The notes under the pieces are model-generated. The model had not been told where the DNA came from. It saw only the letters and a program-made list of their open reading frames with translations, and searched no databases. From positions 1-26,764 of the IMG/VR virus record IMGVR_UViG_3300031519_000180: a stretch of 26,764 nt of DNA. One strand, 5' to 3'. Positions 5,113-22,457 of the stretch are shown in pieces. The stretch's first letter is position 1. The number at the start of each line of letters is the position of its first letter. Both the position numbers and the translations under genes were made by a program. Source of the stretch: a virus (Duplodnaviria > Caudoviricetes).

Positions 5113-5768
5113 TGAACTTTAGAAAAGCAATTTCATACTTACTATTCTTTGTTGCGATAACAGGTATTCTCTACATTCTGTTTAGCTCATTTGCAGAAGC
5201 CGCAGATAGTAACACAGTTTCCTCAACTGTCATAGATAAATCTGTGGGAACGGCAAATGCGCCAGGAATAAACATCAACCAGAATGATTCTTGCGGTACG
5301 GCTAACTCCATAGCAATACAATCTCAGATCCTCGGCATTGCCAGAGGTAAGGCTATAATAGACTTGAACTGTGAACGCATAAAATTAGCTAGGGTTCTAG
5401 GGCAAAGCGGTTTGCGCGTGGCATCAGTTTCTGTGCTATGTGGTGATCCTTCAGGCCGTGTGTTTGATGCGATGTGGAGGGCAGGCACAACCTGTCCATT
5501 TGGTTCTTTATTAGATCAAGGCTTAATTGGCGAAGAAGCTAAAGTCATGTGGACGAAGAACCCAACCATGATTCCCGAAGGTAGCCACTTTCGAAAAATG
5601 ATTGAAAAAGTCAATGTAGCAAAGGCAGAAAAGAAAAAAGCGGTAGAAAAGGCTAAAAAGAAAAAGCTAAAAGAAAAGAAACCTAAGAAAGCGAATAAGG
5701 ATGAGACATCAACCAGTAAGAAAGGTGGCCTGTTTCTTAGCATTGTTACTATACTGCTCCTCCTCTAA
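5112..5768 (+). CDS. Exported Cys-containing protein with Lys-rich tail and C-terminal hydrophobic anchor
   Basis: Start moved to ATG 5112 (TAATG coupling). Signal/TM segment ending AEA-A, four Cys in the core (NDSC, NCERIKLAR, VLCGDP, AGTTCP), poly-Lys linker, C-terminal GLFLSIVTILLLL. Confidence 0.7.
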   Translation: MNFRKAISYLLFFVAITGILYILFSSFAEAADSNTVSSTVIDKSVGTANAPGININQNDSCGTANSIAIQSQILGIARGKAIIDLNCERIKLARVLGQSGLRVASVSVLCGDPSGRVFDAMWRAGTTCPFGSLLDQGLIGEEAKVMWTKNPTMIPEGSHFRKMIEKVNVAKAEKKKAVEKAKKKKLKEKKPKKANKDETSTSKKGGLFLSIVTILLLL

Positions 5769-9088: not shown

Positions 9089-9550
9089 CTACGCGTCAAG
9101 CATAGGGTTTATGAAGTCTTTTCTTAGGTAGCGGTAGATTGTCTTAAAGCAATCCCCGTGTGGTTTCCGATGGTTCTTAGCGAACCTTTTTATTCTAGGG
9201 CAGTGTGCGCGTTGAATGTGGTGAGCGACTTCATGGGCGACAGTCATCCAAAGAGATTCATCCATGTCATTAACCTGTCTACCGCCAATGACTTTATCCG
9301 CATCGTAGGCTTTGTACTCTCTCTCGTAGTGAGGTTTATCAGAATGTTGCCAGTAACTTAGGTTTATCTGAATTACATTTCTCCCACCGTAAGTAGCTCC
9401 ATTGCACCACTCCTTGTCAACAAGCCTAGTTACCTTTACCGCTCGATCAACGTCAGACTTTTTAAGGTCAAGCTCGTACTCTTTCTTCTTGAGTACGTTC
9501 ATGCATTTTCTAACCATGCGCTCTACTTTTATTTTATCGTTTCTAGTCAT
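9089..9550 (-). CDS. SprT-like zinc metalloprotease
   Basis: HEVAH (HExxH) plus downstream PHGDCF motif typical of the SprT family. Start moved to ATG 9550, behind RBS TGGGAGAAACAA. Confidence 0.75.
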   Translation of the reverse strand: MTRNDKIKVERMVRKCMNVLKKKEYELDLKKSDVDRAVKVTRLVDKEWCNGATYGGRNVIQINLSYWQHSDKPHYEREYKAYDADKVIGGRQVNDMDESLWMTVAHEVAHHIQRAHCPRIKRFAKNHRKPHGDCFKTIYRYLRKDFINPMLDA

Positions 9551-9567
9551 TTGTTTCTCCCAGTTAG

Positions 9568-9588
9568 TGGGGAGCGCGATGCTCCCCA
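9568..9588 (-). repeat. Intergenic GC-rich hairpin, copy 1 (GGGGAGC-ATCGC-GCTCCCC)
   Basis: Perfect 8-bp stem. Matches 20202-20222 at 20 of 21 nt in opposite orientation. No U-tract. Confidence 0.85.
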
Positions 9589-9593
9589 TTAGA

Positions 9594-9845
9594 TTAAAGG
9601 TTATACGCTGTCGCCTGAAGCGCATTCCAGTGAGCCAACTTCATCCGCTTTTGGATGTTTGCATTTGGCACAAAGTAGGTCGCCCACTTTCTACCTGTGA
9701 TTGCGAACACGAACCTCATGCCGCACACTTGATGCCCATCATCTAGATGTACACAGTAAAGGGTAGACCCTTTAAATTTACCCTTCTTAGGGCGGTTAAG
9801 TTTATAAGCCTTCTTGATTTGGCTTAATTTCAGTTTAATATTCAT
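9594..9845 (-). CDS. Small basic hypothetical early protein
   Basis: 83 aa, RBS AAGGGAGAGACG, directly behind a sigma70-type promoter. Confidence 0.75.
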   Translation of the reverse strand: MNIKLKLSQIKKAYKLNRPKKGKFKGSTLYCVHLDDGHQVCGMRFVFAITGRKWATYFVPNANIQKRMKLAHWNALQATAYNL

Positions 9846-9879
9846 AACGTCTCTCCCTTTCTAATTCGTTATACGAATC

Positions 9880-9908
9880 AGTATACTACTTTTCACTAGC
9901 AATGTAAA
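9880..9908 (-). promoter_or_regulatory. Leftward sigma70-type promoter
   Basis: Minus strand TTTACA-17 nt-TATACT. The spacer contains TGCTAGTGA. Confidence 0.75.
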
Positions 9909-9982: not shown

Positions 9983-10531
9983 ATGAGTACGTTACTAAAG
10001 ATTACGGGATCGGACGGAGAGAAGAAGCGCAACGCAAACGACTTCTACCCGACACCGAGCTACGCAACCGAGGCTTTGATGAACCGAGAGTTCTTCAGTC
10101 AAAAGATTTGGGAGCCTGCCTGTGGTGATGGTGCTATCTCTAAAGTTCTAGAGGAGAGAGGCCATATCACAGTCAGCACAGATTTAATTGATTACGGATT
10201 TGGTCAGCCTAATGTAGACTTCCTAATGGAGCAGAAGCTACTTGCGCCAGACATAATCACAAACCCACCCTTCAGCTTGGCACATGAATTTGCTGAGAAG
10301 GCAATTGATTTGGGTGTAGATAAATTAGCGTTACTTGTCCGACTGCAATTCTTAGAGGGCGTGAGGCGTGGTAAGTTCTTCCAAAGACATCCACCGTCTA
10401 CTGTGTGGGTATTCTCGAAGCGTCTGTCATTTAATCTGAACGGTACGTTTAAGTCTGGCGGTGTCATGGCATTCGCTTGGTTTGTCTTCAAGAAGGACAA
10501 CAAGAAAACTGAAGTGAAGTGGATACTGTGA
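9983..10531 (+). CDS. DNA N6-adenine methyltransferase (small phage type)
   Basis: DFYPTP, motif I WEPACGDG, motif IV ITNPPF. Start moved to ATG 9983 behind GGGAGA. Confidence 0.85.
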   Translation: MSTLLKITGSDGEKKRNANDFYPTPSYATEALMNREFFSQKIWEPACGDGAISKVLEERGHITVSTDLIDYGFGQPNVDFLMEQKLLAPDIITNPPFSLAHEFAEKAIDLGVDKLALLVRLQFLEGVRRGKFFQRHPPSTVWVFSKRLSFNLNGTFKSGGVMAFAWFVFKKDNKKTEVKWIL

Positions 10532-10532
10532 G

Positions 10533-11354
10533 ATGAAGGCGCATCAAAAGATTGTTAGGGATAGGGTTGCATTGACAAAGTCTGGTGACCTGTTTGGTAA
10601 TTGGTGGGATGATGTAGATACAGATATTTCTAAGGCTGTTGTTAGGGAGACAACTCAGGCAACCGCAAAAAATATTATAGAGGAGTACGAGTGGCTTGGA
10701 TGTCTGGCGGCTGTAAATTGGTTTTACTATGGAATATTTTTTAATAATGTTTGTGGTGGTGTTGTTTGTTATGGCCCAGAGTATTCTGAAAACTTAGGTA
10801 AGATTGCAAGGGAGCAGGGAAGGGCTGGTGCTGATTGGTCTAAGTATGGTTTTGAGGGAAAGATGATTTTGCTTAATCGTGGTGCGTGTGTCCACTGGGC
10901 GCACCCACATTCTGCAAGCAAACTAATACGACAGTCCATGAAGCTGTTACCAAAAAAATATGAAGTTGTCACAGCGACTGTTGATGATCTAGCAGGAGAG
11001 GTCGGAACTATATATCAAGCCTGTGGGTTCCATTACATTGGGTCAATGAGAGATGCCAATAAAAATGTTAATAGTAAAAAAGGTGACAGAGATGCTTGGG
11101 TGATAAATGGCAAGCTGTATGGTTCCAGAAACATTCGGCAGAAGTTTGGTACAACTTCTTTAGATGAAATAAAAAAATATTATCCTGATGTTAAAAAGGT
11201 AAAGCAAAATTCTAAGGGGCGTTACTTTGCATTCAGGGGCGATAAGAAAACAAAGAAAGCTCATTTTGAAACTATCAAAGATTTAATTAAATCTTACCCT
11301 AAAAGATTAAACCAAGAATTACCCCAGTCTGTTCTGGAAGGGTGGCACAAATGA
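10533..11354 (+). CDS. mom: Mom-like GNAT-fold DNA adenine modification enzyme
   Basis: Pattern YGIF..N..GGVVCYG...LNRG....SASKLI..S.K.L....VVTATVD...GEVGTIYQACGFHYIG matches the phage Mu Mom family signature (GTIYQA.N/GW/F.Y.G). Confidence 0.7.
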   Translation: MKAHQKIVRDRVALTKSGDLFGNWWDDVDTDISKAVVRETTQATAKNIIEEYEWLGCLAAVNWFYYGIFFNNVCGGVVCYGPEYSENLGKIAREQGRAGADWSKYGFEGKMILLNRGACVHWAHPHSASKLIRQSMKLLPKKYEVVTATVDDLAGEVGTIYQACGFHYIGSMRDANKNVNSKKGDRDAWVINGKLYGSRNIRQKFGTTSLDEIKKYYPDVKKVKQNSKGRYFAFRGDKKTKKAHFETIKDLIKSYPKRLNQELPQSVLEGWHK

Positions 11355-12754
11355 AATTTAAAACAAAACCATTCGCCCACCAGATGAAGGCATTTGATCT
11401 TAGCAAGAAGAGGAAGGGCTTTGCACTTCTCATGGAGCAAGGCACTGGCAAGACTAAAGTCATAATCGACACTGCCGCATATCTCTACGAGAACAAGGCA
11501 ATCGACACGGTGATTGTTATTTGCCCAAATGGTGTCCACAGGAATTGGGTTAACAATGAGATTCCAATCCACATGTCCTGTGAATACAGGGCTACCTTCT
11601 ACTCATCTCAAATGAAGAAGAAGCAAATCGATAAGTTCAACGAAGTTCTGGAGTATGACGGGTTGAAGATCTTCGCATTTAACGTCGAGGCATTCACATC
11701 TGTAACGGCTCAGAAGTACATGATGACAGCCCTGAAGAAGAATAAAGTTCTAATGGTTATCGATGAGAGCAGTCGCATTAAGACACCGAGTTCGAAGCGC
11801 ACCAAGATGATTACCAAATTTGGCAAGCACCCGAATGTGATAGCCAAGAGAATCTTAACAGGTACGCCAGTGACCAAAGGGGCTGAGGATGTCTTCGCCC
11901 AATTTAAGTTTCTTAACCCTGACATTCTTGAGGTGACATCACTTTACAAGTTTAAAGATAAATACTGTGTGATGGGTGGATTTAAAAACAAGCAGATCGT
12001 CGGCTACCAAAATATGGATGAACTGACCGAGCGTCTTGGCAAGTACAGCTTCAGAGTTCTGAAGAGTGAGTGCTTAGATTTGCCTGAGAAGATATACCAA
12101 CGTCACTACGTTGAGATGTCTGCGGCTCAGGGCAAGCTCTACAAAGACCTGAAGAAGTCTTTTATCGCAGAGCTTGAGGGAAACATGATAGAGGTTCCAG
12201 AGGCGATTACACGGCTTCTCAGACTACAACAGATACTATGTGGTTGGTTTCCAGTCGAGGGTTCATCTATTCCTATTGATAAGGTAAACCCACGCATTGA
12301 GGCATTGAGGGAAGTGCTAGGCAATATCAATGGTAAGACAATCATCTGGGCTAGGTTCAGGGCTGATTTAGAGGCCATAGAGGGGCTACTAGGCTCTGAG
12401 GCGGTTAGTTATCATGGTGGAGTGTCTAACGACGACAGGGAGATTGCTGTTAACAGGTTTCAGAATGACCCTGATGTAAAATATTTTCTATCAAATCCAC
12501 AGGCAGGTGGAATTGGTATTACGCTCAACAAGGCTGAGTATGCGATTTACTACTCGAACAGCTTTAACTTGGAGGAGCGTATGCAGTCAGAAGACAGGGC
12601 GCACAGAATAGGCACAGAGAAAAATGTGACCTACATTGATATCGAGTGCCGCAAGTCAATCGACAGTAAAATAATCCAAGCACTGCGAACCAAGAAGTCT
12701 ATCGCAGATATTGTAACCAAAGACCCAATGTCAATTTTTATGGAGGAAGAGTAA
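11351..12754 (+). CDS. SNF2-family (SF2) helicase
   Basis: Walker A MEQGTGKT, DESS, LTGTP, GGIGITL, QSEDRAHRIG. ATG 11351 overlaps the upstream stop (ATGA). Confidence 0.92.
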   Translation: MKFKTKPFAHQMKAFDLSKKRKGFALLMEQGTGKTKVIIDTAAYLYENKAIDTVIVICPNGVHRNWVNNEIPIHMSCEYRATFYSSQMKKKQIDKFNEVLEYDGLKIFAFNVEAFTSVTAQKYMMTALKKNKVLMVIDESSRIKTPSSKRTKMITKFGKHPNVIAKRILTGTPVTKGAEDVFAQFKFLNPDILEVTSLYKFKDKYCVMGGFKNKQIVGYQNMDELTERLGKYSFRVLKSECLDLPEKIYQRHYVEMSAAQGKLYKDLKKSFIAELEGNMIEVPEAITRLLRLQQILCGWFPVEGSSIPIDKVNPRIEALREVLGNINGKTIIWARFRADLEAIEGLLGSEAVSYHGGVSNDDREIAVNRFQNDPDVKYFLSNPQAGGIGITLNKAEYAIYYSNSFNLEERMQSEDRAHRIGTEKNVTYIDIECRKSIDSKIIQALRTKKSIADIVTKDPMSIFMEEE

Positions 12755-13416
12755 TGACTTTATATGAGCAAAAATTAAAAGCAGAAAGTCACTTAAAAGA
12801 TATAAAACGTGCAATCAAAGCCGAACGAAAAAAAGTGGTTATTAAAGATAAATCTATTTACAAAGCGGCTACGGCACTTTTAAATATTTCGCCCCTAGAT
12901 CACAGTAATATATATAAAGCACATAGATTAGGGTCATGGCTACATCAAACCGCAACTATGAAAAAAATGTCTCCTGCGTTAGATCTTAAAATTTCTTCGC
13001 TCCTCAAGTATAAAGATAGTGAGGAAGACATCGGTGATCATTATAGTTTTCACGGCACGTTTACCTTATTGCAAGCAATGGATGTTTACAGACAGTATAC
13101 TTCCACTGAACCTGCCTTCAGTCATTTCAGGACGTTTCTTCTTATTATGGCGTATAGCGGAGAGTTCAATTTTCCCGTTGAGGTATATGGAATGAATAAT
13201 GTTCTGGGTATTCAGCAATCTACGTTAAGTCGTATTATTGGGATATTAGGAGAAGAGACAGATGGGGAAGATGCAGGTACTTCAGGACGACCTGTCATCC
13301 GACATGGTTTAATACAATGCACAAAACCCGATAAAAATACTGACGGTAGACGTAAATATGTTAACCTAACCCCAAAAGGGGGGGCATTAGCCCAACAGAT
13401 TAACGAAGTATTATAA
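12754..13416 (+). CDS. Protein with C-terminal MarR-like winged-helix domain
   Basis: QQSTLSRIIGILG...GLI...DGRRKYVNLTPKG is the MarR wing signature. The N-terminal ~110 aa are unassigned. Confidence 0.7.
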   Translation: MTLYEQKLKAESHLKDIKRAIKAERKKVVIKDKSIYKAATALLNISPLDHSNIYKAHRLGSWLHQTATMKKMSPALDLKISSLLKYKDSEEDIGDHYSFHGTFTLLQAMDVYRQYTSTEPAFSHFRTFLLIMAYSGEFNFPVEVYGMNNVLGIQQSTLSRIIGILGEETDGEDAGTSGRPVIRHGLIQCTKPDKNTDGRRKYVNLTPKGGALAQQINEVL

Positions 13417-14969: not shown

Positions 14970-15140
14970 ATGGATAATGAAATCAAAGAAGATACTAACG
15001 ACCAGTACAAGCAACTGGGTGTTCGACTTAGGGCAGATGTCTGGGATAAAATGGACGCTCACTGGGTTAAGACCCGTATTTCCAAAACGGCTATTGTTGA
15101 GATGGCTGTCAAGGAATATCTTGAGAAACTTGGGTATTAA
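14970..15140 (+). CDS. Ribbon-helix-helix (CopG/Arc/MetJ-like) transcriptional regulator, 56 aa (not in ORF track)
   Basis: MDNEIKEDTNDQYKQLGVRLRADVWDKMDAHWVKTRISKTAIVEMAVKEYLEKLGY*: alternating beta strand (KQLGVRL), helix A, then helix B SKTAIVEMAVKEYL. RBS AAGGAG. Confidence 0.8.
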   Translation: MDNEIKEDTNDQYKQLGVRLRADVWDKMDAHWVKTRISKTAIVEMAVKEYLEKLGY

Positions 15141-17095: not shown

Positions 17096-17125
17096 ACCCC
17101 ACATGTTGGAGAGATGTGTGGGGTT
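17096..17125 (+). other. Intergenic stem-loop between ssb and primase-helicase
   Basis: ACCCCACATGT-TGGAGAG-ATGTGTGGGGT, 11-bp stem with two G-U pairs and no U-tract. Confidence 0.65.
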
Positions 17126-17158
17126 GATTCCCATGAAACAATTTTGTAAGGCGGCAAA

Positions 17159-19009
17159 ATGACAAATTTTAAGAGGGCAATCTGGTCTGAATATAGTCCA
17201 CAAATAATTAGCGCATTAAATCTAAAGAAGGTTACCCAAGGAGAATACCACGGCTCATGCCCAAATTGCGGTGGCAAGGATCGGTTTTGGATTAATGAAT
17301 ATAACGGTGAGGTAAAGGTACAGTGTAGGCAGTGCGACGACTTTAAGGAAATAACATTGATCTTACAGGCTCAGGGCTTATGGCCAGAGAGGGAAAACGG
17401 TTTTACCGTAAAGGAGATAGAGTGGCCTAGTGTCTCAACTCAACATCCCTACCTCGCCAAGAAGAAGATCGCACAGCATAACGCACTGATCGACGGGAGT
17501 AACCTCATTATTCCAATCAACAATTACATGGCTAGGAAAGTCGGAACCCAGACAATTACACCTGACGGAACCAAGAAGTTCTCTAAGGGAATGCCTGTCA
17601 TTGGTAACTTCAGCGTCCTTGGCGGTACGATTACAGACATAGCTTATATTGCTGAAGGGTGGGCGACTGCCGCATCTATCAGTGAGGCCACAGGTAAGCC
17701 AGCCGTGTTTGCCTTAAATGCCAATAACATTACCGAAGTCATTACGAACTTAAAGATAGCCAAGCCACACGCAGAGTTCATTGTGTGTGCAGATAATGAT
17801 GAGGCAGGGATTAAAGGAGCGGAAAAGGCGAAGGAAGATCACGGCACGAAATATCTACTACCACCAAAGGGCATGGATTATAATGACCTCTGGGTAGCTC
17901 AAGGTGCAGATGCTGTAGTAAACTTCCTAACCCCGAAGAGGTTTCAGGACACAGTATTCTGGGCAGATGACGCTCGGCCAATCCTCACAAACAATTACCT
18001 GATCAAGAACTGGCTCGGTGCAAATCAACTGAGCTGTCTTTACGGTGCGTCCAACACAGGTAAGTCATTCCTAGCCCTAGATATGTCTTGGCACATTGCC
18101 ACTGGCAGAGAGTGGAATGGAAATAAAGTTATTAAAGGCGTTGTGCTGTACATGGCCACGGAGGGTGGCAACAGCTTTAGGAATAGAGTTTACGCACTCA
18201 AAGATCATTACGGAGATGAGAATGCACTCTTAGCAGTAAGGCCAAGTCCAGTCGATATGTTTAACAGTGACGTTGATCTGCCCACGTTGGAGAACTTATG
18301 CAGTGAGATTCGAGATGAGAAGGGCGAGATCGCACTGATTGTTGTGGATACATTGTCCAGAGCAATGGCAGGTGCTAATGAAAATACATCGGAAGACATG
18401 TCGCAATTCATAAAGAACTGTGACATACTTAGGAATATCTCGAACGCTCACCTGATGATAGTTCACCACACTGGCAAGGATACTGCCAAAGGTGCTAGAG
18501 GTTCTTCTGCTTTGAAGGCCGCATTAGACACTGAGATAGAGTTAGACGTTCAGCAAGATAGTGGTATCAGAACAGCACTCTGCACGAAACAAAGAGATCT
18601 AGAGAGTGGCGCGGCATACTCATTCAGGCTGAACGTCTCAGTCCTTGGCGTTGATCCAGACGGAGATGATATCACCACAGTAGTTATTGCGAAATGTGAC
18701 GCTGAGGAACTGGAAGAGGCCAAGAAGAAAATACCAAAAGGTAAGAACCAGAAGCTGTTCTTGGAGTGCTTCAGGCAACTCAAGGCAGATAAAGTTGGGC
18801 AACCTAATCCTGGCGGAACTGGGTGGCCAGAGCCACATACTTACTGGGTCATTCAGGAGGAAGATGTGCGTGAACACTTCACTGGAAAGTTCAGTGGATC
18901 GAACCACAGAAGTGCTTGGAAACAGACTCTGGAGGCCATGATTTCAGGTGACTTTATGTGTATGAATCAGGGTCAAATCTGGCTGTTGGCGAAAGAGGGC
19001 AAAGTATGA
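17159..19009 (+). CDS. Primase-helicase: Zn ribbon + TOPRIM + RepA/AAA_25-type helicase
   Basis: CPNCGGKDRF...CRQC; AEGWATA and ADND (TOPRIM); GASNTGKS, IVVDT, HHTGK..GARGSS. Confidence 0.92.
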   Translation: MTNFKRAIWSEYSPQIISALNLKKVTQGEYHGSCPNCGGKDRFWINEYNGEVKVQCRQCDDFKEITLILQAQGLWPERENGFTVKEIEWPSVSTQHPYLAKKKIAQHNALIDGSNLIIPINNYMARKVGTQTITPDGTKKFSKGMPVIGNFSVLGGTITDIAYIAEGWATAASISEATGKPAVFALNANNITEVITNLKIAKPHAEFIVCADNDEAGIKGAEKAKEDHGTKYLLPPKGMDYNDLWVAQGADAVVNFLTPKRFQDTVFWADDARPILTNNYLIKNWLGANQLSCLYGASNTGKSFLALDMSWHIATGREWNGNKVIKGVVLYMATEGGNSFRNRVYALKDHYGDENALLAVRPSPVDMFNSDVDLPTLENLCSEIRDEKGEIALIVVDTLSRAMAGANENTSEDMSQFIKNCDILRNISNAHLMIVHHTGKDTAKGARGSSALKAALDTEIELDVQQDSGIRTALCTKQRDLESGAAYSFRLNVSVLGVDPDGDDITTVVIAKCDAEELEEAKKKIPKGKNQKLFLECFRQLKADKVGQPNPGGTGWPEPHTYWVIQEEDVREHFTGKFSGSNHRSAWKQTLEAMISGDFMCMNQGQIWLLAKEGKV

Positions 19010-19146
19010 AAAGCGTATGAAAAGTAGAGTGTAATGAAATCAATGACTTACAAGTGTGTTTCATACGTTTCATACGCTTTTCCTACGCTTGTTCATACGC
19101 GTATGAATTGTAGGAATTACCTATAGGGTATTCCTACTTCATACGG
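19001..19146. other. Putative replication origin: convergent (C)GTATGAA / TTCATAC(G) iterons, IHF site, palindromes
   Basis: GTATGAAAA x2, then AATCAATGACTTA (exact WATCAANNNNTTR, 19038-19050), then TTCATACG/TTCCTACG x4. Perfect 16-bp palindrome at 19092-19107 and hairpin at 19110-19137. Confidence 0.7.
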
Positions 19147-19166
19147 AACCGCAAAAAGAGGATCAT

Positions 19167-19373
19167 ATGGGTAGTAAGACAGAAGACAGAAGGCCAAGGT
19201 TTAGGAGAGTTAAGGGTACAGAGAATTCAAGGGTATTCTGGCATCCCTGTTCTGTGTGTGGCGACACTGATGCAGGGTTTGGTTTGGACGTTGAGATATT
19301 AAGGAATAACTTTGGAACTTGGTTCTGCGGAGAATGTAAGCCTGATGATTATTATAGAGGGAAAAGAAAATGA
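19167..19373 (+). CDS. Small zinc-finger protein
   Basis: CSVC...WFCGEC; GAGGA RBS. Confidence 0.7.
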   Translation: MGSKTEDRRPRFRRVKGTENSRVFWHPCSVCGDTDAGFGLDVEILRNNFGTWFCGECKPDDYYRGKRK

Positions 19374-19627
19374 TGAAGGCAAGTAAACTTTTAAGTGATG
19401 CATCTAAGTTGGTGAGTGGAGATCGACAGAGTTCATACGGAACACCAGAGGATAGCTTCAAGAAGTTATCCGCATTGTGGAGTGCATACCTTGATGTAGA
19501 AATAACACCACACGATGCCTGTGTTATGATGTCACTTTTAAAAGTTAGCAGATTAGCATATAAACCTAGTGAAGATTCAAGTACAGATGGTGCGGCATAT
19601 TTATGCCTCGCTAATCAAGTGAGCTAA
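19370..19627 (+). CDS. DUF6378-like phage protein
   Basis: A..LV.GDR...YG.P..SF..L..LWSAYL......D...MM.LLK.SR......DS..D.A.Y pattern. Confidence 0.8.
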   Translation: MMKASKLLSDASKLVSGDRQSSYGTPEDSFKKLSALWSAYLDVEITPHDACVMMSLLKVSRLAYKPSEDSSTDGAAYLCLANQVS

Positions 19628-19725
19628 CCCCTCTGCGTCTGGTCGCCTCTATGACGCTGTTTCTCCCAAAACTTTAGGGGGGTAGACTGACCCCTGACTC
19701 AAATTGAGTTGGGGGTCTTTTTTTT
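19624..19725 (+). ncRNA. Candidate 3'UTR-derived anti-Shine-Dalgarno small RNA
   Basis: Outer stem 19624-32/19676-85, inner stem GCGTC/GACGC, unpaired TGTTTCTCCCA (19658-19668) complementary to four early-gene RBSs. Ends in a strong terminator. Confidence 0.5.
19689..19725 (+). terminator. Rho-independent terminator ending the replication operon
   Basis: GACCCCTGACTCA-AAT-TGAGTTGGGGGTC followed by T8. Confidence 0.9.
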
Positions 19726-19745
19726 ATTTATTTTACATTTGGCAC

Positions 19746-19774
19746 TTGACAGTGCTAGTGATTGCTAGTACTTA
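19746..19774 (+). promoter_or_regulatory. Sigma70-type promoter of the rightward early cassette
   Basis: cTTGACA-17 nt-TACTTA(T). The spacer has TGCTAGT twice at 10-bp spacing (19753, 19763). Confidence 0.7.
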
Positions 19775-19806
19775 TTGTTTATAGAAACAAACAAGGGAGA
19801 AATAAA

Positions 19807-20193
19807 ATGGCACAACGAGAAATAGCACACGAAAATTTAGCTCACAAAATCTTTGTAGGTAAAGAAAATTACGAAGGATACAAAGATGGTGATGTCTTAG
19901 CTATTGCATATAAATCAATAAACCACGGCACTCTGCACAACTTCTATACTTTAGGTAGTGTTGTATCTTGCGCCATCGACTGGTGTAGTTGCCCATTCGA
20001 GGCAGTAGAAAGAGCAAAAGAAAATGGTGAGGATCTTCATTTCGCATTTGGAAACGGTGTTTCAATTACTTCCCATACACGAGATCAAGAGATTTCTTTC
20101 ATGGTGAACCATGGAGATGAAATAAAGTTTCACGGTAAAATGTTTGAGATTGTTGCTACAGCAAATAACAACATTGGTCTTAAACCAGTTTAA
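19807..20193 (+). CDS. Hypothetical early protein, 128 aa
   Basis: Start moved to ATG 19807, behind RBS AAGGGAGAAATA. Confidence 0.75.
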   Translation: MAQREIAHENLAHKIFVGKENYEGYKDGDVLAIAYKSINHGTLHNFYTLGSVVSCAIDWCSCPFEAVERAKENGEDLHFAFGNGVSITSHTRDQEISFMVNHGDEIKFHGKMFEIVATANNNIGLKPV

Positions 20194-20201
20194 TTAATCA
20201 A

Positions 20202-20222
20202 GGGGAGCCTCGCGCTCCCCAC
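20202..20222 (+). repeat. Intergenic GC-rich hairpin, copy 2 (GGGGAGC-CTCGC-GCTCCCC-AC)
   Basis: Matches the reverse complement of 9567-9587 at 20 of 21 nt. Confidence 0.85.
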
Positions 20223-20239
20223 AATCAAGGGAGAGACAT

Positions 20240-20491
20240 ATGTATAATTTTGATGAAGAAGTTGCAAAAATATTTGGAATGGATCTTGATGAGCCTAAGC
20301 CAGTTAAAGTTCGCCTTAAAGATTCATTAAAAATAGATAAAAACATACTTGGCACTGTGTTAACTAAAAATATTGGTGGGTTGGTTATGGTTGGTATATG
20401 GGTTAAAGAAGATAGCTTCGAAGTTCTTGATGATGAAGAGTTAGAAGATTATGAAGTTCTTAGTGATGAAGAAATAGAAAAATTTCTCTGA
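20240..20491 (+). CDS. Small acidic hypothetical protein
   Basis: 83 aa, RBS AAGGGAGAGACA. Duplicated acidic tail EVLDDEELEDY/EVLSDEEIEKF. Confidence 0.75.
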   Translation: MYNFDEEVAKIFGMDLDEPKPVKVRLKDSLKIDKNILGTVLTKNIGGLVMVGIWVKEDSFEVLDDEELEDYEVLSDEEIEKFL

Positions 20492-20498
20492 GAAAATC

Positions 20499-20526
20499 AG
20501 CCTCACTTCGGTGGGGCTTTTTTTTT
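20499..20526 (+). terminator. Rho-independent terminator with C(UUCG)G tetraloop
   Basis: AGCCTCAC-TTCG-GTGGGGCT followed by a T run. Confidence 0.92.
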
Positions 20527-20581
20527 GCAAAATAGTGTGTATATTGAAAGCACGGTTAACCACTGAGAAAAGGTTTAAAGG

Positions 20582-21046
20582 ATGAGCGACGAAAAAAGAA
20601 AAGTAGGAAGACCAAGATTTGAGATAACTCCAGAAGTCTGTGAGAAGGTCGAGAACCTCTCAGCCCAAGGTTTAACAGTCGAGCAAATCTCTCTGGTCTT
20701 GGGAATTAATAAGTCAACTATGTTTGATAAACAGAACGAATATCCAGATTTTTCCGATGCGCTAAAAAGGGGGCGTGGCAAGGGCGTTGCCAATGTGACC
20801 AACGCATTGTACACAAAGGCAGTGGATGGAGATAACACTGCCATGATCTTCTACCTGAAGAACCGAGCAGGTTGGGTGGATAAACAAGAAATTCAGTCAA
20901 CTGTCGAGCAGAGACATATCATAGATTTAACTAGGATTCCAAATGACCAACTTGAACAGCTTGAAAATGCATTTAAGCAACCTGACACTGGAGCAAGTGA
21001 GGGCGGAGAAGTATCGGAGATCATTGAGGGAGTTTACGAAGGCTAG
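20582..21046 (+). CDS. terS: Terminase small subunit
   Basis: GRP, HTH (GLTVEQISLVLGINKST), YPDFSDALKRG, AMIFYLKNRAGW. Directly upstream of terL. Confidence 0.85.
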   Translation: MSDEKRKVGRPRFEITPEVCEKVENLSAQGLTVEQISLVLGINKSTMFDKQNEYPDFSDALKRGRGKGVANVTNALYTKAVDGDNTAMIFYLKNRAGWVDKQEIQSTVEQRHIIDLTRIPNDQLEQLENAFKQPDTGASEGGEVSEIIEGVYEG

Positions 21047-22457
21047 TTGGCCGTCTATTGAGCCTGCTCAACCTTTCATAAACAACTGGCACATCGATGC
21101 AATCTCTGATCACCTACAGGCTGTTGTGGAAGGCGATATTAAACGCCTGATCATAAATGTTCCCCCAAGACACATGAAATCTATTTCTGTGGCCGTGGCA
21201 CTGCCTGCTTGGACTTGGACGAAGCAACCTGACAAAAAGTTTCTCTACGCCTCTTACGCAAGCTCTCTGTCGGTCAGGGATAGCGTTAAGTGTCGTAGGT
21301 TGATCGACAGTAACTGGTATCAAGATCATTTTGGCGATGCATTTGATTTAACCTCTGACCAAAACCAAAAGCAACGATTTGAGAACAATAAGACTGGAGC
21401 GAGGATAGCAACATCGGTTGACGGGGCGTTAACTGGTGAGGGTGGCGATATAATCATCATTGATGATCCACATAATGTGAGAGAGAGTGATTCTTCGCTT
21501 GTCAGGCAAGGTGTTCTTGATTGGTGGGATCAGGCAATGCAAACCAGACTGAATGACCCCAGAACTGGCGCATTTATTATAATTATGCAGAGAGTACATG
21601 AGAATGACTTGGCAGGTCACATTTTAGCTAACGACCTTGGCCACGAGTGGGATCACTTATGTTTACCTGCTCGATATGAGATAGGTCACCCAACGCCAAC
21701 GATATCAACGCTAGGCTTTGCTGATCCCAGAACTAAAGAGGGAGAATTACTCTGGCCAGAGAGAGTTGACACTAAAACCTTAGACAGCCTAGAGCGAAGT
21801 CTTGGAAGTTACGCAAGTGCAGGTCAGCTACAGCAACGCCCTGCACCGAAGGGCGGTGGAATCTTAAAAGCCAAGTGGTGGGTTCCTTGGGAGAGCCAAG
21901 ACTTGCCGTCGAACATCGAGTACGTCATTCAGAGTTACGATACTGCATTCAGCACAAAAGAAACCGCAGACTACTCAGCTAGGACAACGTGGGGCGTATT
22001 TAGACATGAGGGCATGATGAACATCATGGTTCTTGATATGTGGTACGACAGGGTCAGCTATCCTGACCTAAGACGCATTGCCCAAGATTCATATTACGAG
22101 TGGGAGCCTGACGCAGTGTTGATCGAGAAGAAGGCTTCAGGTCAATCTCTATTGCAAGATTTACGCATGGCAGGAATACCTGTATTGGAATATTTACCTG
22201 ACCGTGATAAGCAAGCCAGAGCGCACGCAAGTTCCGCATTGTTAGAAGATGGAAGAATCTACTATCCTTTTGACAAGAAGTGGGCTAAAGATTTAATAGA
22301 CATATGTTCAGCATTTCCTGCTGGAGATAATGACGACATAGTTGACACATGTACGCAAGCATGGCTAAGATTGCGAAAAGGTTGGTTTGTCGGCCACACT
22401 GACGATTACGAAGAAGATGAATTTGTTGAAACAAGGAGGATGACTCTGTATGGCTAG
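20943..22457 (+). CDS. terL: Terminase large subunit
   Basis: PPRHMKS (Walker A variant), IIIDDPH, IIMQRVHENDL, RNase H-fold SYDTA, IEKKASG, DDIVD. Confidence 0.95.
   Translation: MTNLNSLKMHLSNLTLEQVRAEKYRRSLREFTKASWPSIEPAQPFINNWHIDAISDHLQAVVEGDIKRLIINVPPRHMKSISVAVALPAWTWTKQPDKKFLYASYASSLSVRDSVKCRRLIDSNWYQDHFGDAFDLTSDQNQKQRFENNKTGARIATSVDGALTGEGGDIIIIDDPHNVRESDSSLVRQGVLDWWDQAMQTRLNDPRTGAFIIIMQRVHENDLAGHILANDLGHEWDHLCLPARYEIGHPTPTISTLGFADPRTKEGELLWPERVDTKTLDSLERSLGSYASAGQLQQRPAPKGGGILKAKWWVPWESQDLPSNIEYVIQSYDTAFSTKETADYSARTTWGVFRHEGMMNIMVLDMWYDRVSYPDLRRIAQDSYYEWEPDAVLIEKKASGQSLLQDLRMAGIPVLEYLPDRDKQARAHASSALLEDGRIYYPFDKKWAKDLIDICSAFPAGDNDDIVDTCTQAWLRLRKGWFVGHTDDYEEDEFVETRRMTLYG

Follow-up and report, generated by a model that had tools for sequence, protein, structure and literature searches.

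Phages are known to encode multi-stem RNAs that act in trans on their own transcripts. The C4 RNA of P1 and P7, which is processed by RNase P, and the CI RNA of P4 each act on one operon and in lysogenic immunity, and known phage antisense RNAs mostly control either one operon or host genes. Among base-pairing RNAs of other types, the alphaR8 sRNAs (RF00519, suhB; MmgR; Caulobacter SisA-D) are Hfq-associated, stand-alone transcripts defined by the 10-mer UUUCCUCCCU, which is single-stranded and follows a weak hairpin, and SisA represses its targets by pairing upstream of the start codon (accessible text of PMC12559287). The AbcR1/2 sRNAs carry two separate anti-SD motifs, one of them in a hairpin loop, each with its own RBS targets (accessible text of PMC8844928). 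The lambda PreS sRNA acts by base pairing in the lytic cycle and activates host dnaN (bioRxiv 10.1101/2024.10.31.621285, accessible part). The C4 family is listed in the accessible part of PMC2864571. The published pattern closest to the present locus is that of the SAS (start-associated sequences) of cluster K mycobacteriophages, an extended repeat positioned at the RBS of non-structural genes only and conserved beyond what 16S pairing requires; one reverse copy lies away from gene starts, and the accessible text of PMC3203893 leaves undecided whether the ligand is an RNA or a protein. The locus described here has the same arrangement, an extended RBS repeat on non-structural genes together with one reverse copy away from a start, and the reverse copy lies in a conserved element with a predicted RNA fold.

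The replication operon and its flanking cassettes

The window, that is, the whole 26,764-nucleotide stretch of viral DNA that was analysed, comes from the genome of a marine phage. In the large terminase it shares 81% identity with Roseobacter phages CRP-901 and CRP-902, and its primase-helicase is nearest to those of other roseophages (36-53%), so the host is probably an alphaproteobacterium. A replication operon encoding an MTase, Mom, an SNF2 helicase, a nuclease, SSB, the primase-helicase and a DUF6378 protein terminates at 19627. It is flanked by two cassettes of small genes of unknown function, at 19807 and 20240 on the plus strand and at 9845 and 9550 on the minus strand. The sigma70-like promoters and the type of gene suggest that these cassettes are expressed early.

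19370 to 19627, plus strand: DUF6378 gene, final gene of the replication operon (PF19905, E 8e-25)
19746 to 19774, plus strand: promoter-like region of the plus-strand cassette, with TTGACA and TGCTAG repeats, read by eye and absent from the promoter-scan list
9880 to 9908, minus strand: sigma70-like promoter of the minus-strand cassette (10/12 consensus match; inverted repeat I13), sharing TGCTAGTGA
20202 to 20220, plus strand: hairpin GGGGAGC...GCTCCCC between the plus-strand cassette genes, directly upstream of a leader, seen in the sequence
9569 to 9587, minus strand: second copy of the same intergenic hairpin, seen in the sequence

Both cassette promoters have, between their -35 and -10 elements, a TGCTAG repeat (19753-19770, plus; 9884-9901, minus) that recurs in G001, a near-complete relative (50 kb, 95% complete); the repeat could be the operator of a phage regulator, for example the product of ORF 14970-15140 or 12754-13416. 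The GGGGAGC...GCTCCCC hairpin is present in four copies in G001 and lacks a U-tract. Its 3' arm is itself an anti-SD sequence, and the hairpin may serve as a site of processing, a module for recombination or a mask in cis. The cassette gene that an earlier sequence-only reading of the window had called sprT-like (ORF 9089-9550, minus) found no match in Pfam or PHROGs; its 153-residue product does contain an HEVAHH motif and has relatives in L019, L075 and L078. Within the operon, GTATGAA repeats in both orientations lie 3' of the primase-helicase gene (18998-19155) and probably mark the replication origin; repeat blocks with other units occupy the same position in many distant relatives. A strong hairpin without a U-tract separates SSB from primase (17100-17135), as it does with different sequence in L016 and L019. 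In one clade (L014 2459, plus) the SNF2 helicase gene has the full cassette leader GGGAGAAACA, so there a replication gene may be under cassette-type control.

A predicted three-way-junction RNA

Folding of the region that follows, and overlaps, the DUF6378 stop codon predicted three stems and an intrinsic terminator.

19622 to 19725, plus strand: candidate regulatory RNA, predicted three-way junction P1/P2/P3 plus intrinsic terminator (from folds and conservation)
19622 to 19688, plus strand: P1 closing stem, 19622-19634 with 19676-19688, the 5' arm overlapping the DUF6378 stop codon (from the fold)
19635 to 19657, plus strand: P2 hairpin with loop UCGCCU at 19643-19648, complementary to AGGCGG of the primase leader (from the fold; loop kept, stem rewritten)
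19658 to 19672, plus strand: seed UGUUUCUCCCA, comprising the weak P3 stem GUUU/AAAC and the open loop CUCCCA at 19663-19668 (from fold and conservation)
19684 to 19725, plus strand: linker AGACUGACC and intrinsic terminator (stem 19689-19717, U-tract 19718-19725), resembling the alphaR8/SuhB 3' module

The element has a minimum free energy (MFE) of -43.1 kcal/mol and a z of -5.3, most of which is accounted for by the terminator, a 13-pair stem and U-tract. The junction without the terminator reaches a z of only -1.8 in the window; for four relatives the values range from -2.6 to -6.0. Both stems proposed in the sequence-only reading, the outer and the inner one, are present in the MFE structure. 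The motif TGTTTCTCCCA, located at 19658-19668, had been taken to be unpaired over its full 11 nucleotides; this is predicted for the hexaloop CUCCCA (unpaired probability 0.97-1.0), but GUUU (19659-62) pairs with AAAC (19669-72) with a probability of about 0.7-0.85, and because of this weak stem only CUCCCA is open. The predicted cost of opening the seed 10-mer is about 1.2 kcal/mol. The third stem, a second conserved loop matching the primase leader and the alphaR8-like 3' module had been missed. A switch in which CUCCC is sequestered by the adjacent G-run and exposed by ribosomes at the stop codon, also proposed there, is not conserved across sequence types: when the 5' arm was deleted in silico, the G-run captured CUCCC in three types (window, L013 and L065), and CUCCC stayed open (0.93-1.0) in L019 and L070, types that have no G-run.

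A candidate internal promoter at 19502-19530 was at chance level. The promoter scan found 19 sites in comparison to 26.8 in shuffled sequence, fewer than random, and supports no independent promoter. Of the 11 public runs listed, all of them as contigs, one is on record as RNA; it covers 19273-19485, outside the element, and is uninformative either way.

Searches for relatives were anchored on the DUF6378 protein and hence blind to the motif. They returned 27 viral and 28 metagenome loci forming a tight clade (71-100% identity), and both loop motifs (YCGCCU and UGUUUCUCCC) are kept in all 54 clade loci with downstream DNA. These loci are not independent, since the two collections have contigs in common and one is the window's own record; they represent 10 distinct sequences. 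In the homologous regions downstream of DUF6378, to which the sequence-only reading had pointed as a check, the motif is conserved and its CUCCCA loop is predicted to be open in the types folded. The P1 and P2 stems are rewritten between clades (for instance GCGUC/GACGC versus UGAUAUCA/UGAUAUCA) around constant loops, and the three-arm fold is the MFE structure in 6/6 types examined. The seed strand of P3, GUUU, does not vary; the strand opposite it is AAAC, GAAC, AGAC or AAGC, with pairing always preserved via G-U, which fixes the plus strand and suggests that a second constraint acts on the seed strand. As to stem covariation, a further check, two-sided changes occur in 5 of 18 consensus pairs, all in P1 and the terminator, the only stems counted because the automatic alignment misplaced P2 and P3. 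Among more distant DUF6378 loci with downstream DNA, the loop pattern of this group (group A) was found in 0 of 17. Taken together, the comparison bears out the claim of a structured plus-strand RNA with a conserved, exposed anti-SD loop, its fold being a prediction, and indicates that the element is a real, conserved and uncatalogued phage RNA element.

Complementarity to cassette and primase leaders

The motif position and four leader sequences quoted in the sequence-only reading were all confirmed. All four leaders belong to cassette genes and are predicted targets of the seed.

19795 to 19804, plus strand: predicted target leader GGGAGAAATA of ORF 19807-20193, complementary to the seed
20229 to 20238, plus strand: predicted target leader GGGAGAGACA of ORF 20240-20491, complementary to the seed
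9848 to 9857, minus strand: predicted target leader GGGAGAGACG of ORF 9845-9594, complementary to the seed
9552 to 9562, minus strand: predicted target leader TGGGAGAAACA of ORF 9550-9089, with 11/11 Watson-Crick pairs

In addition, the MTase leader contains TTGGGAGA. With starts called by a simple script, some of them wrongly, and cassettes defined by position, the seed ranked the four cassette leaders 1-4 of the 27 starts in the window (G000; p 0.0009). Similarly, 12 of the 14 cassette genes of G001 fell in the top 16 of 73 starts (ranks 1-10, 13 and 16) and the remaining two at ranks 46 and 48 (AUC 0.91, p 1e-6). The expectation that cassette RBSs would outrank other starts therefore held, at 1-4 of 27 and 1-10 of 73. 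A generic 16S tail used as the query gave an AUC of only 0.62-0.63, indicating that more than Shine-Dalgarno strength sets the cassette leaders apart. When all 256 four-base extensions of CUCCC were compared, the natural one ranked first against cassette leaders in both genomes, and 114th and 171st against non-cassette genes, in keeping with the claim that pairing extends past the SD core beyond 16S needs.

Over positions 7-10 of the pairing, 45 of 60 distinct GGGAGA leader/gene pairs are complementary, compared to 7 of 39 other GGAGA leaders. The remaining 15 of the 60 break the pairing; every deviation had been described as wobble-preserving, which is true of the four window leaders and not across relatives. 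At position 9, 49 of the 60 have C or U, both of which can pair with G; C-U change is also the most frequent kind of mutation. Being copied modules, the leaders do not count as independent events. The first cassette genes are exchanged freely across the clade and the leader is retained; since seed and leader are both almost invariant inside the group, no covariation between them is seen within it. Target sites are predicted to be accessible at 0.2-2.8 kcal/mol. These comparisons support a complementarity that is specific to cassette leaders and exceeds what 16S rRNA would require.

The second loop is complementary to the leader of the primase-helicase gene.

17149 to 17154, plus strand: primase-helicase leader AGGCGG, possible P2-loop target (AGGCGGCAA in 17/17 group loci reaching the primase start)

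The leader sequence AGGCGGCAA complements the P2 loop motif YCGCCU. AGGCG occurs at no start other than that of the primase in G001 and at one other in the window; by energy the primase start ranks 1/73 and 4/27, respectively, as a P2-loop target. This match comprises 6-7 pairs whose flanks do not covary, and for that reason we treat it as a lead. In group B, the second loop placed its own primase leader outside the top 5 of 40 in G004 and 4th of 29 in G015. Separately, several phages have a terminator between SSB and primase whose U-tract faces the antisense strand and which follows the primase start region read in reverse complement; a cis-antisense RNA that controls translation of the primase is a candidate here:

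G004, 11286-11366, plus strand: SSB-primase antisense terminator
G015, 10454-10534, minus strand: SSB-primase antisense terminator
G011, 5134-5214, plus strand: SSB-primase antisense terminator
G009, 18081-18158, minus strand: SSB-primase antisense terminator
G010, 22005-22082, minus strand: SSB-primase antisense terminator
L030, 5570-5690: SSB-primase antisense terminator

We consider it probable, on balance, that the element is a trans-acting antisense repressor of the cassette genes. The motifs, the terminator, their conservation, the complementarity and its restriction to cassettes are read from sequence and comparison; on the predicted fold, we infer a transcript, its processing, repression and timing as follows. 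The RNA would be released from the 3' end of the operon or made from an internal promoter. Its open CUCCCA loop would first pair with GGGAG in the cassette leaders, and the weak GUUU stem would then unzip, giving 10-11 pairs over the Shine-Dalgarno site and spacer. Ribosomes would thereby be blocked from every gene with that leader, presumably with the assistance of Hfq, and the cassettes would be turned off once the replication genes are expressed. In a weaker step of the proposal, the primase leader may be damped as well, by the second loop. The position of the P1 5' arm within coding sequence counts against this scheme. Control via a shared leader fits the free swapping of cassette genes, and an RNA reading such a leader would bring each cassette gene under common control as soon as it is acquired.

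An alphaR8/AbcR mimic directed at the host, mainly repressing host mRNAs with GGGAG-type sites and matching the cassettes only secondarily, seems unlikely to us. The linker and terminator are alphaR8-like, related phages have the exact alphaR8 10-mer with no own-phage target, and GGGAGARAY-ATG leaders number 18, 21, 9, 7 and 4 in five roseobacter-family genomes, which may not be the host's, versus 0-1 in the control. Yet such leaders are few per genome of 2.6-5.0 Mb compared to 4/27 and 7/73 phage starts, the 20 host leaders that were translated stand on mixed genes, some of them probably not real starts, and the seed differs from the host 10-mer by a single base that fits the phage leader. 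The targeting of host GGGAGA mRNAs raised in the sequence-only reading thus stays weakly open, with 4-21 matching leaders per roseobacter-family genome on mixed genes. Immunity or superinfection control, in which the RNA of a resident or first phage silences the cassette genes of an incoming relative, is improbable. Silencing of this kind is the role of the P1 C4 and P4 CI RNAs, whose three-arm fold is alike, and clades that exchange cassette genes keep one and the same seed. Against it, no PF00589 integrase was found in any of the four records searched (G001, 95% complete, and three others), the RNA lies at the end of a lytic replication operon, and an independent promoter is unsupported (19 sites against 26.8 in shuffles).

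We give equally little credence to a cis element, either an end-of-operon stabiliser or processor of the mRNA or a loop masking only the next leader (19795) in read-through transcripts. The element does overlap the stop codon, abut the terminator and lie 130 nt upstream of the first cassette leader, but a cis role cannot account for the presence of this leader on cassettes of the other strand, 10 kb away in the window, or on an eight-gene opposite-strand block in G001, and a stability hairpin would not need invariant loops. Finally, the 10-mer could be bound by a protein at the DNA level, or be left over from a cassette leader that was inverted; it would be read either way and pair as RNA only incidentally. 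In the L019 and L070 types the minus strand does read as a leader followed by ATG and a four-codon ORF, and in L070 it folds as well as the plus strand. This minus-strand reading was rejected as a general explanation, as the window, L013 and L065 types have no start codon after the motif; furthermore, stem changes around the motif compensate each other, and the G-U pairs and U-tract work only on the plus strand. We regard a DNA site or relic as very improbable indeed.

Related elements and known RNAs

To the trans-acting repressor reading can be added a comparison with other phage groups. A primase-anchored search was made and the best 80 of 564 relatives were considered. Of 33 distant loci with DUF6378 and downstream DNA, 13 showed a C-rich motif, an ACU(U/G)GCC-like linker and a U-tract, a pattern that was written after seeing the sequences and that random stretches match at 0.3%. 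Eleven further loci (L114-L124) show the same pattern by eye with a longer spacer; these and L150 contain the exact alphaR8 10-mer without an own-phage target. In group I (G009 and G010; primase about 44% identical), a hairpin and U-tract lie opposite the primase strand, with the loop UUAGCCUUUC, and GAAAGGYUA occurs at 14 of 56 (excluding the element's own site) and 7 of 55 starts. The loop as a plain primase RBS was rejected, as only one of six loci has the ATG in frame with the primase. In L154/L155 (G009, G010) and L160, GAAAGGYUA takes the place of a GGAG-type Shine-Dalgarno sequence at the cassette genes, SSB and nuclease, and a second weak RF00519 match with ACCUUUCUU lies at the cassette end.

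The group I seed gave AUCs of 0.93/0.95 on its own cassettes and 0.51/0.33 on group A cassettes; the group A seed gave 1.00/0.93 on its own and 0.26/0.20 on group I cassettes. The natural extension of the own seed ranked 1/256 in both group I genomes, 6/256 in G002 and 198/256 in G004. The group B seed has no own-phage targets (rank 198/256, AUC 0.48) and scores 0.98/0.83 on group A cassettes, so specificity against near seeds is thin. With the seeds of groups other than A chosen by eye, a permutation test over nine groups gave p 0.039, driven by groups A and I, and the diagonal of the cross-matrix was negative for groups B, C and J and near zero for F, G and H. As far as these sequences indicate, one group repeats the match of seed to own leader with another sequence and a second does so weakly; the remaining groups lack it, and there the RNA may target the host. 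Model R1, which comprises only P1 and terminator pairs and was built on an imperfect alignment, matched just the window, G001 and two marginal sites among 34 sources; since none was in group I, homology of its element to the group A RNA is unsupported. R1 matched 0 of 151 roseobacter-family genomes in a run without a positive control.

Among cultured phages, CRP-701 and CRP-823 have alphaR8-like elements adjoining their primase operons, so that the wider class is testable in the laboratory. In CRP-701 (L029 730-816, minus) the element, comprising UUUUACCUCCCU, a hairpin, AACUGCCC and a terminator, closes the primase operon, and several genes have an AGGGAAA leader. CRP-901 and CRP-902 show no such seed by eye, and an RF00519 match upstream of the CRP-901 TerS gene lacks the motif. 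A blastn search with 19000-20700 found no cultured phage covering the element among the 20 of 90 matches listed. A pattern scan of genome contigs returned about 1800 matches scattered over unrelated taxa, which we treated as chance.

A broader and more tentative proposal, which we think possible but would not bet on, is that marine phages repeatedly took up an alphaR8-type scaffold and retuned its seed to an address code in their own cassette leaders, so that one RNA would shut the whole exchanged gene set, and perhaps damp primase, without a protein repressor. If true, phages would have in such RNAs a general layer of regulation, and the orphan reverse copy of the start-associated sequences would be accounted for.

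The literature covered, largely outside subscription papers and supplements, holds nothing on the element. An Rfam scan of the window (E <= 5) gave three chance-level matches, none relevant, and a gathering-threshold scan of 14 distant loci gave none. RF00519 run alone matched the window only at the element (19637-19732, 14.6 bits, E 0.028 for one genome); this score is well below the gathering cut-off of 41 bits, the match is absent from the all-family scan at E <= 5, and RF00519 also matches weakly in all 14 control genomes at E <= 10. Among relatives, the match falls on the corresponding element in G003, G005, G006, G012 and G013 and elsewhere in G004 and G015, and there is none in G002 and G014. 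The element shares with alphaR8 a hairpin, a pyrimidine anti-SD stretch, a short linker and an intrinsic, Rho-independent terminator, and the host alphaR8-like matches L318 and L319 have a similar linker. P2 supplies the upstream hairpin, and the seed is half paired in the predicted weak P3. In place of the exact 10-mer, group A has UUUCUCCCA or UUUCUCCCU, one C short. Unlike alphaR8, the element has its seed in a third stem-loop, is phage-borne, is fused to a gene end and is matched to the phage's own genes. It thus resembles alphaR8 in its predicted action and may derive from it, yet fails membership.

Compared with the two separate anti-SD motifs of AbcR1/2 (alpha-r15), as presented in the accessible text of PMC8844928, the element may have a similar pair: two conserved loops are predicted to be open, that of P2 having a possible target of 6-7 pairs. 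The AbcR sRNAs differ in being host-encoded, stand-alone genes with transporter mRNAs as targets and with other motifs and another fold; neither an Rfam match nor the aSD1/aSD2 motifs given there (CUCCUCCC and UUCCCCUC) were found in the element. Like C4 and P4 CI, it is a multi-stem phage RNA for which we propose trans action on the phage's own transcripts. Unlike them, it matches a leader common to 4-12 scattered genes in a phage in which no integrase was found, and C4 (RF01695) gave no Rfam match at E <= 5. Lambda PreS is likewise a phage-encoded, base-pairing sRNA, and the accessible part of its description contains no set of phage genes with a shared leader. The likeness to the cluster K SAS is one of arrangement, as sequence and host phylum differ, and the accessible text of PMC3203893 does not describe the reverse copy as a structured RNA. 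For the question left in that text, whether the reader of such sequences is RNA or protein, the element would give a testable answer: an RNA.
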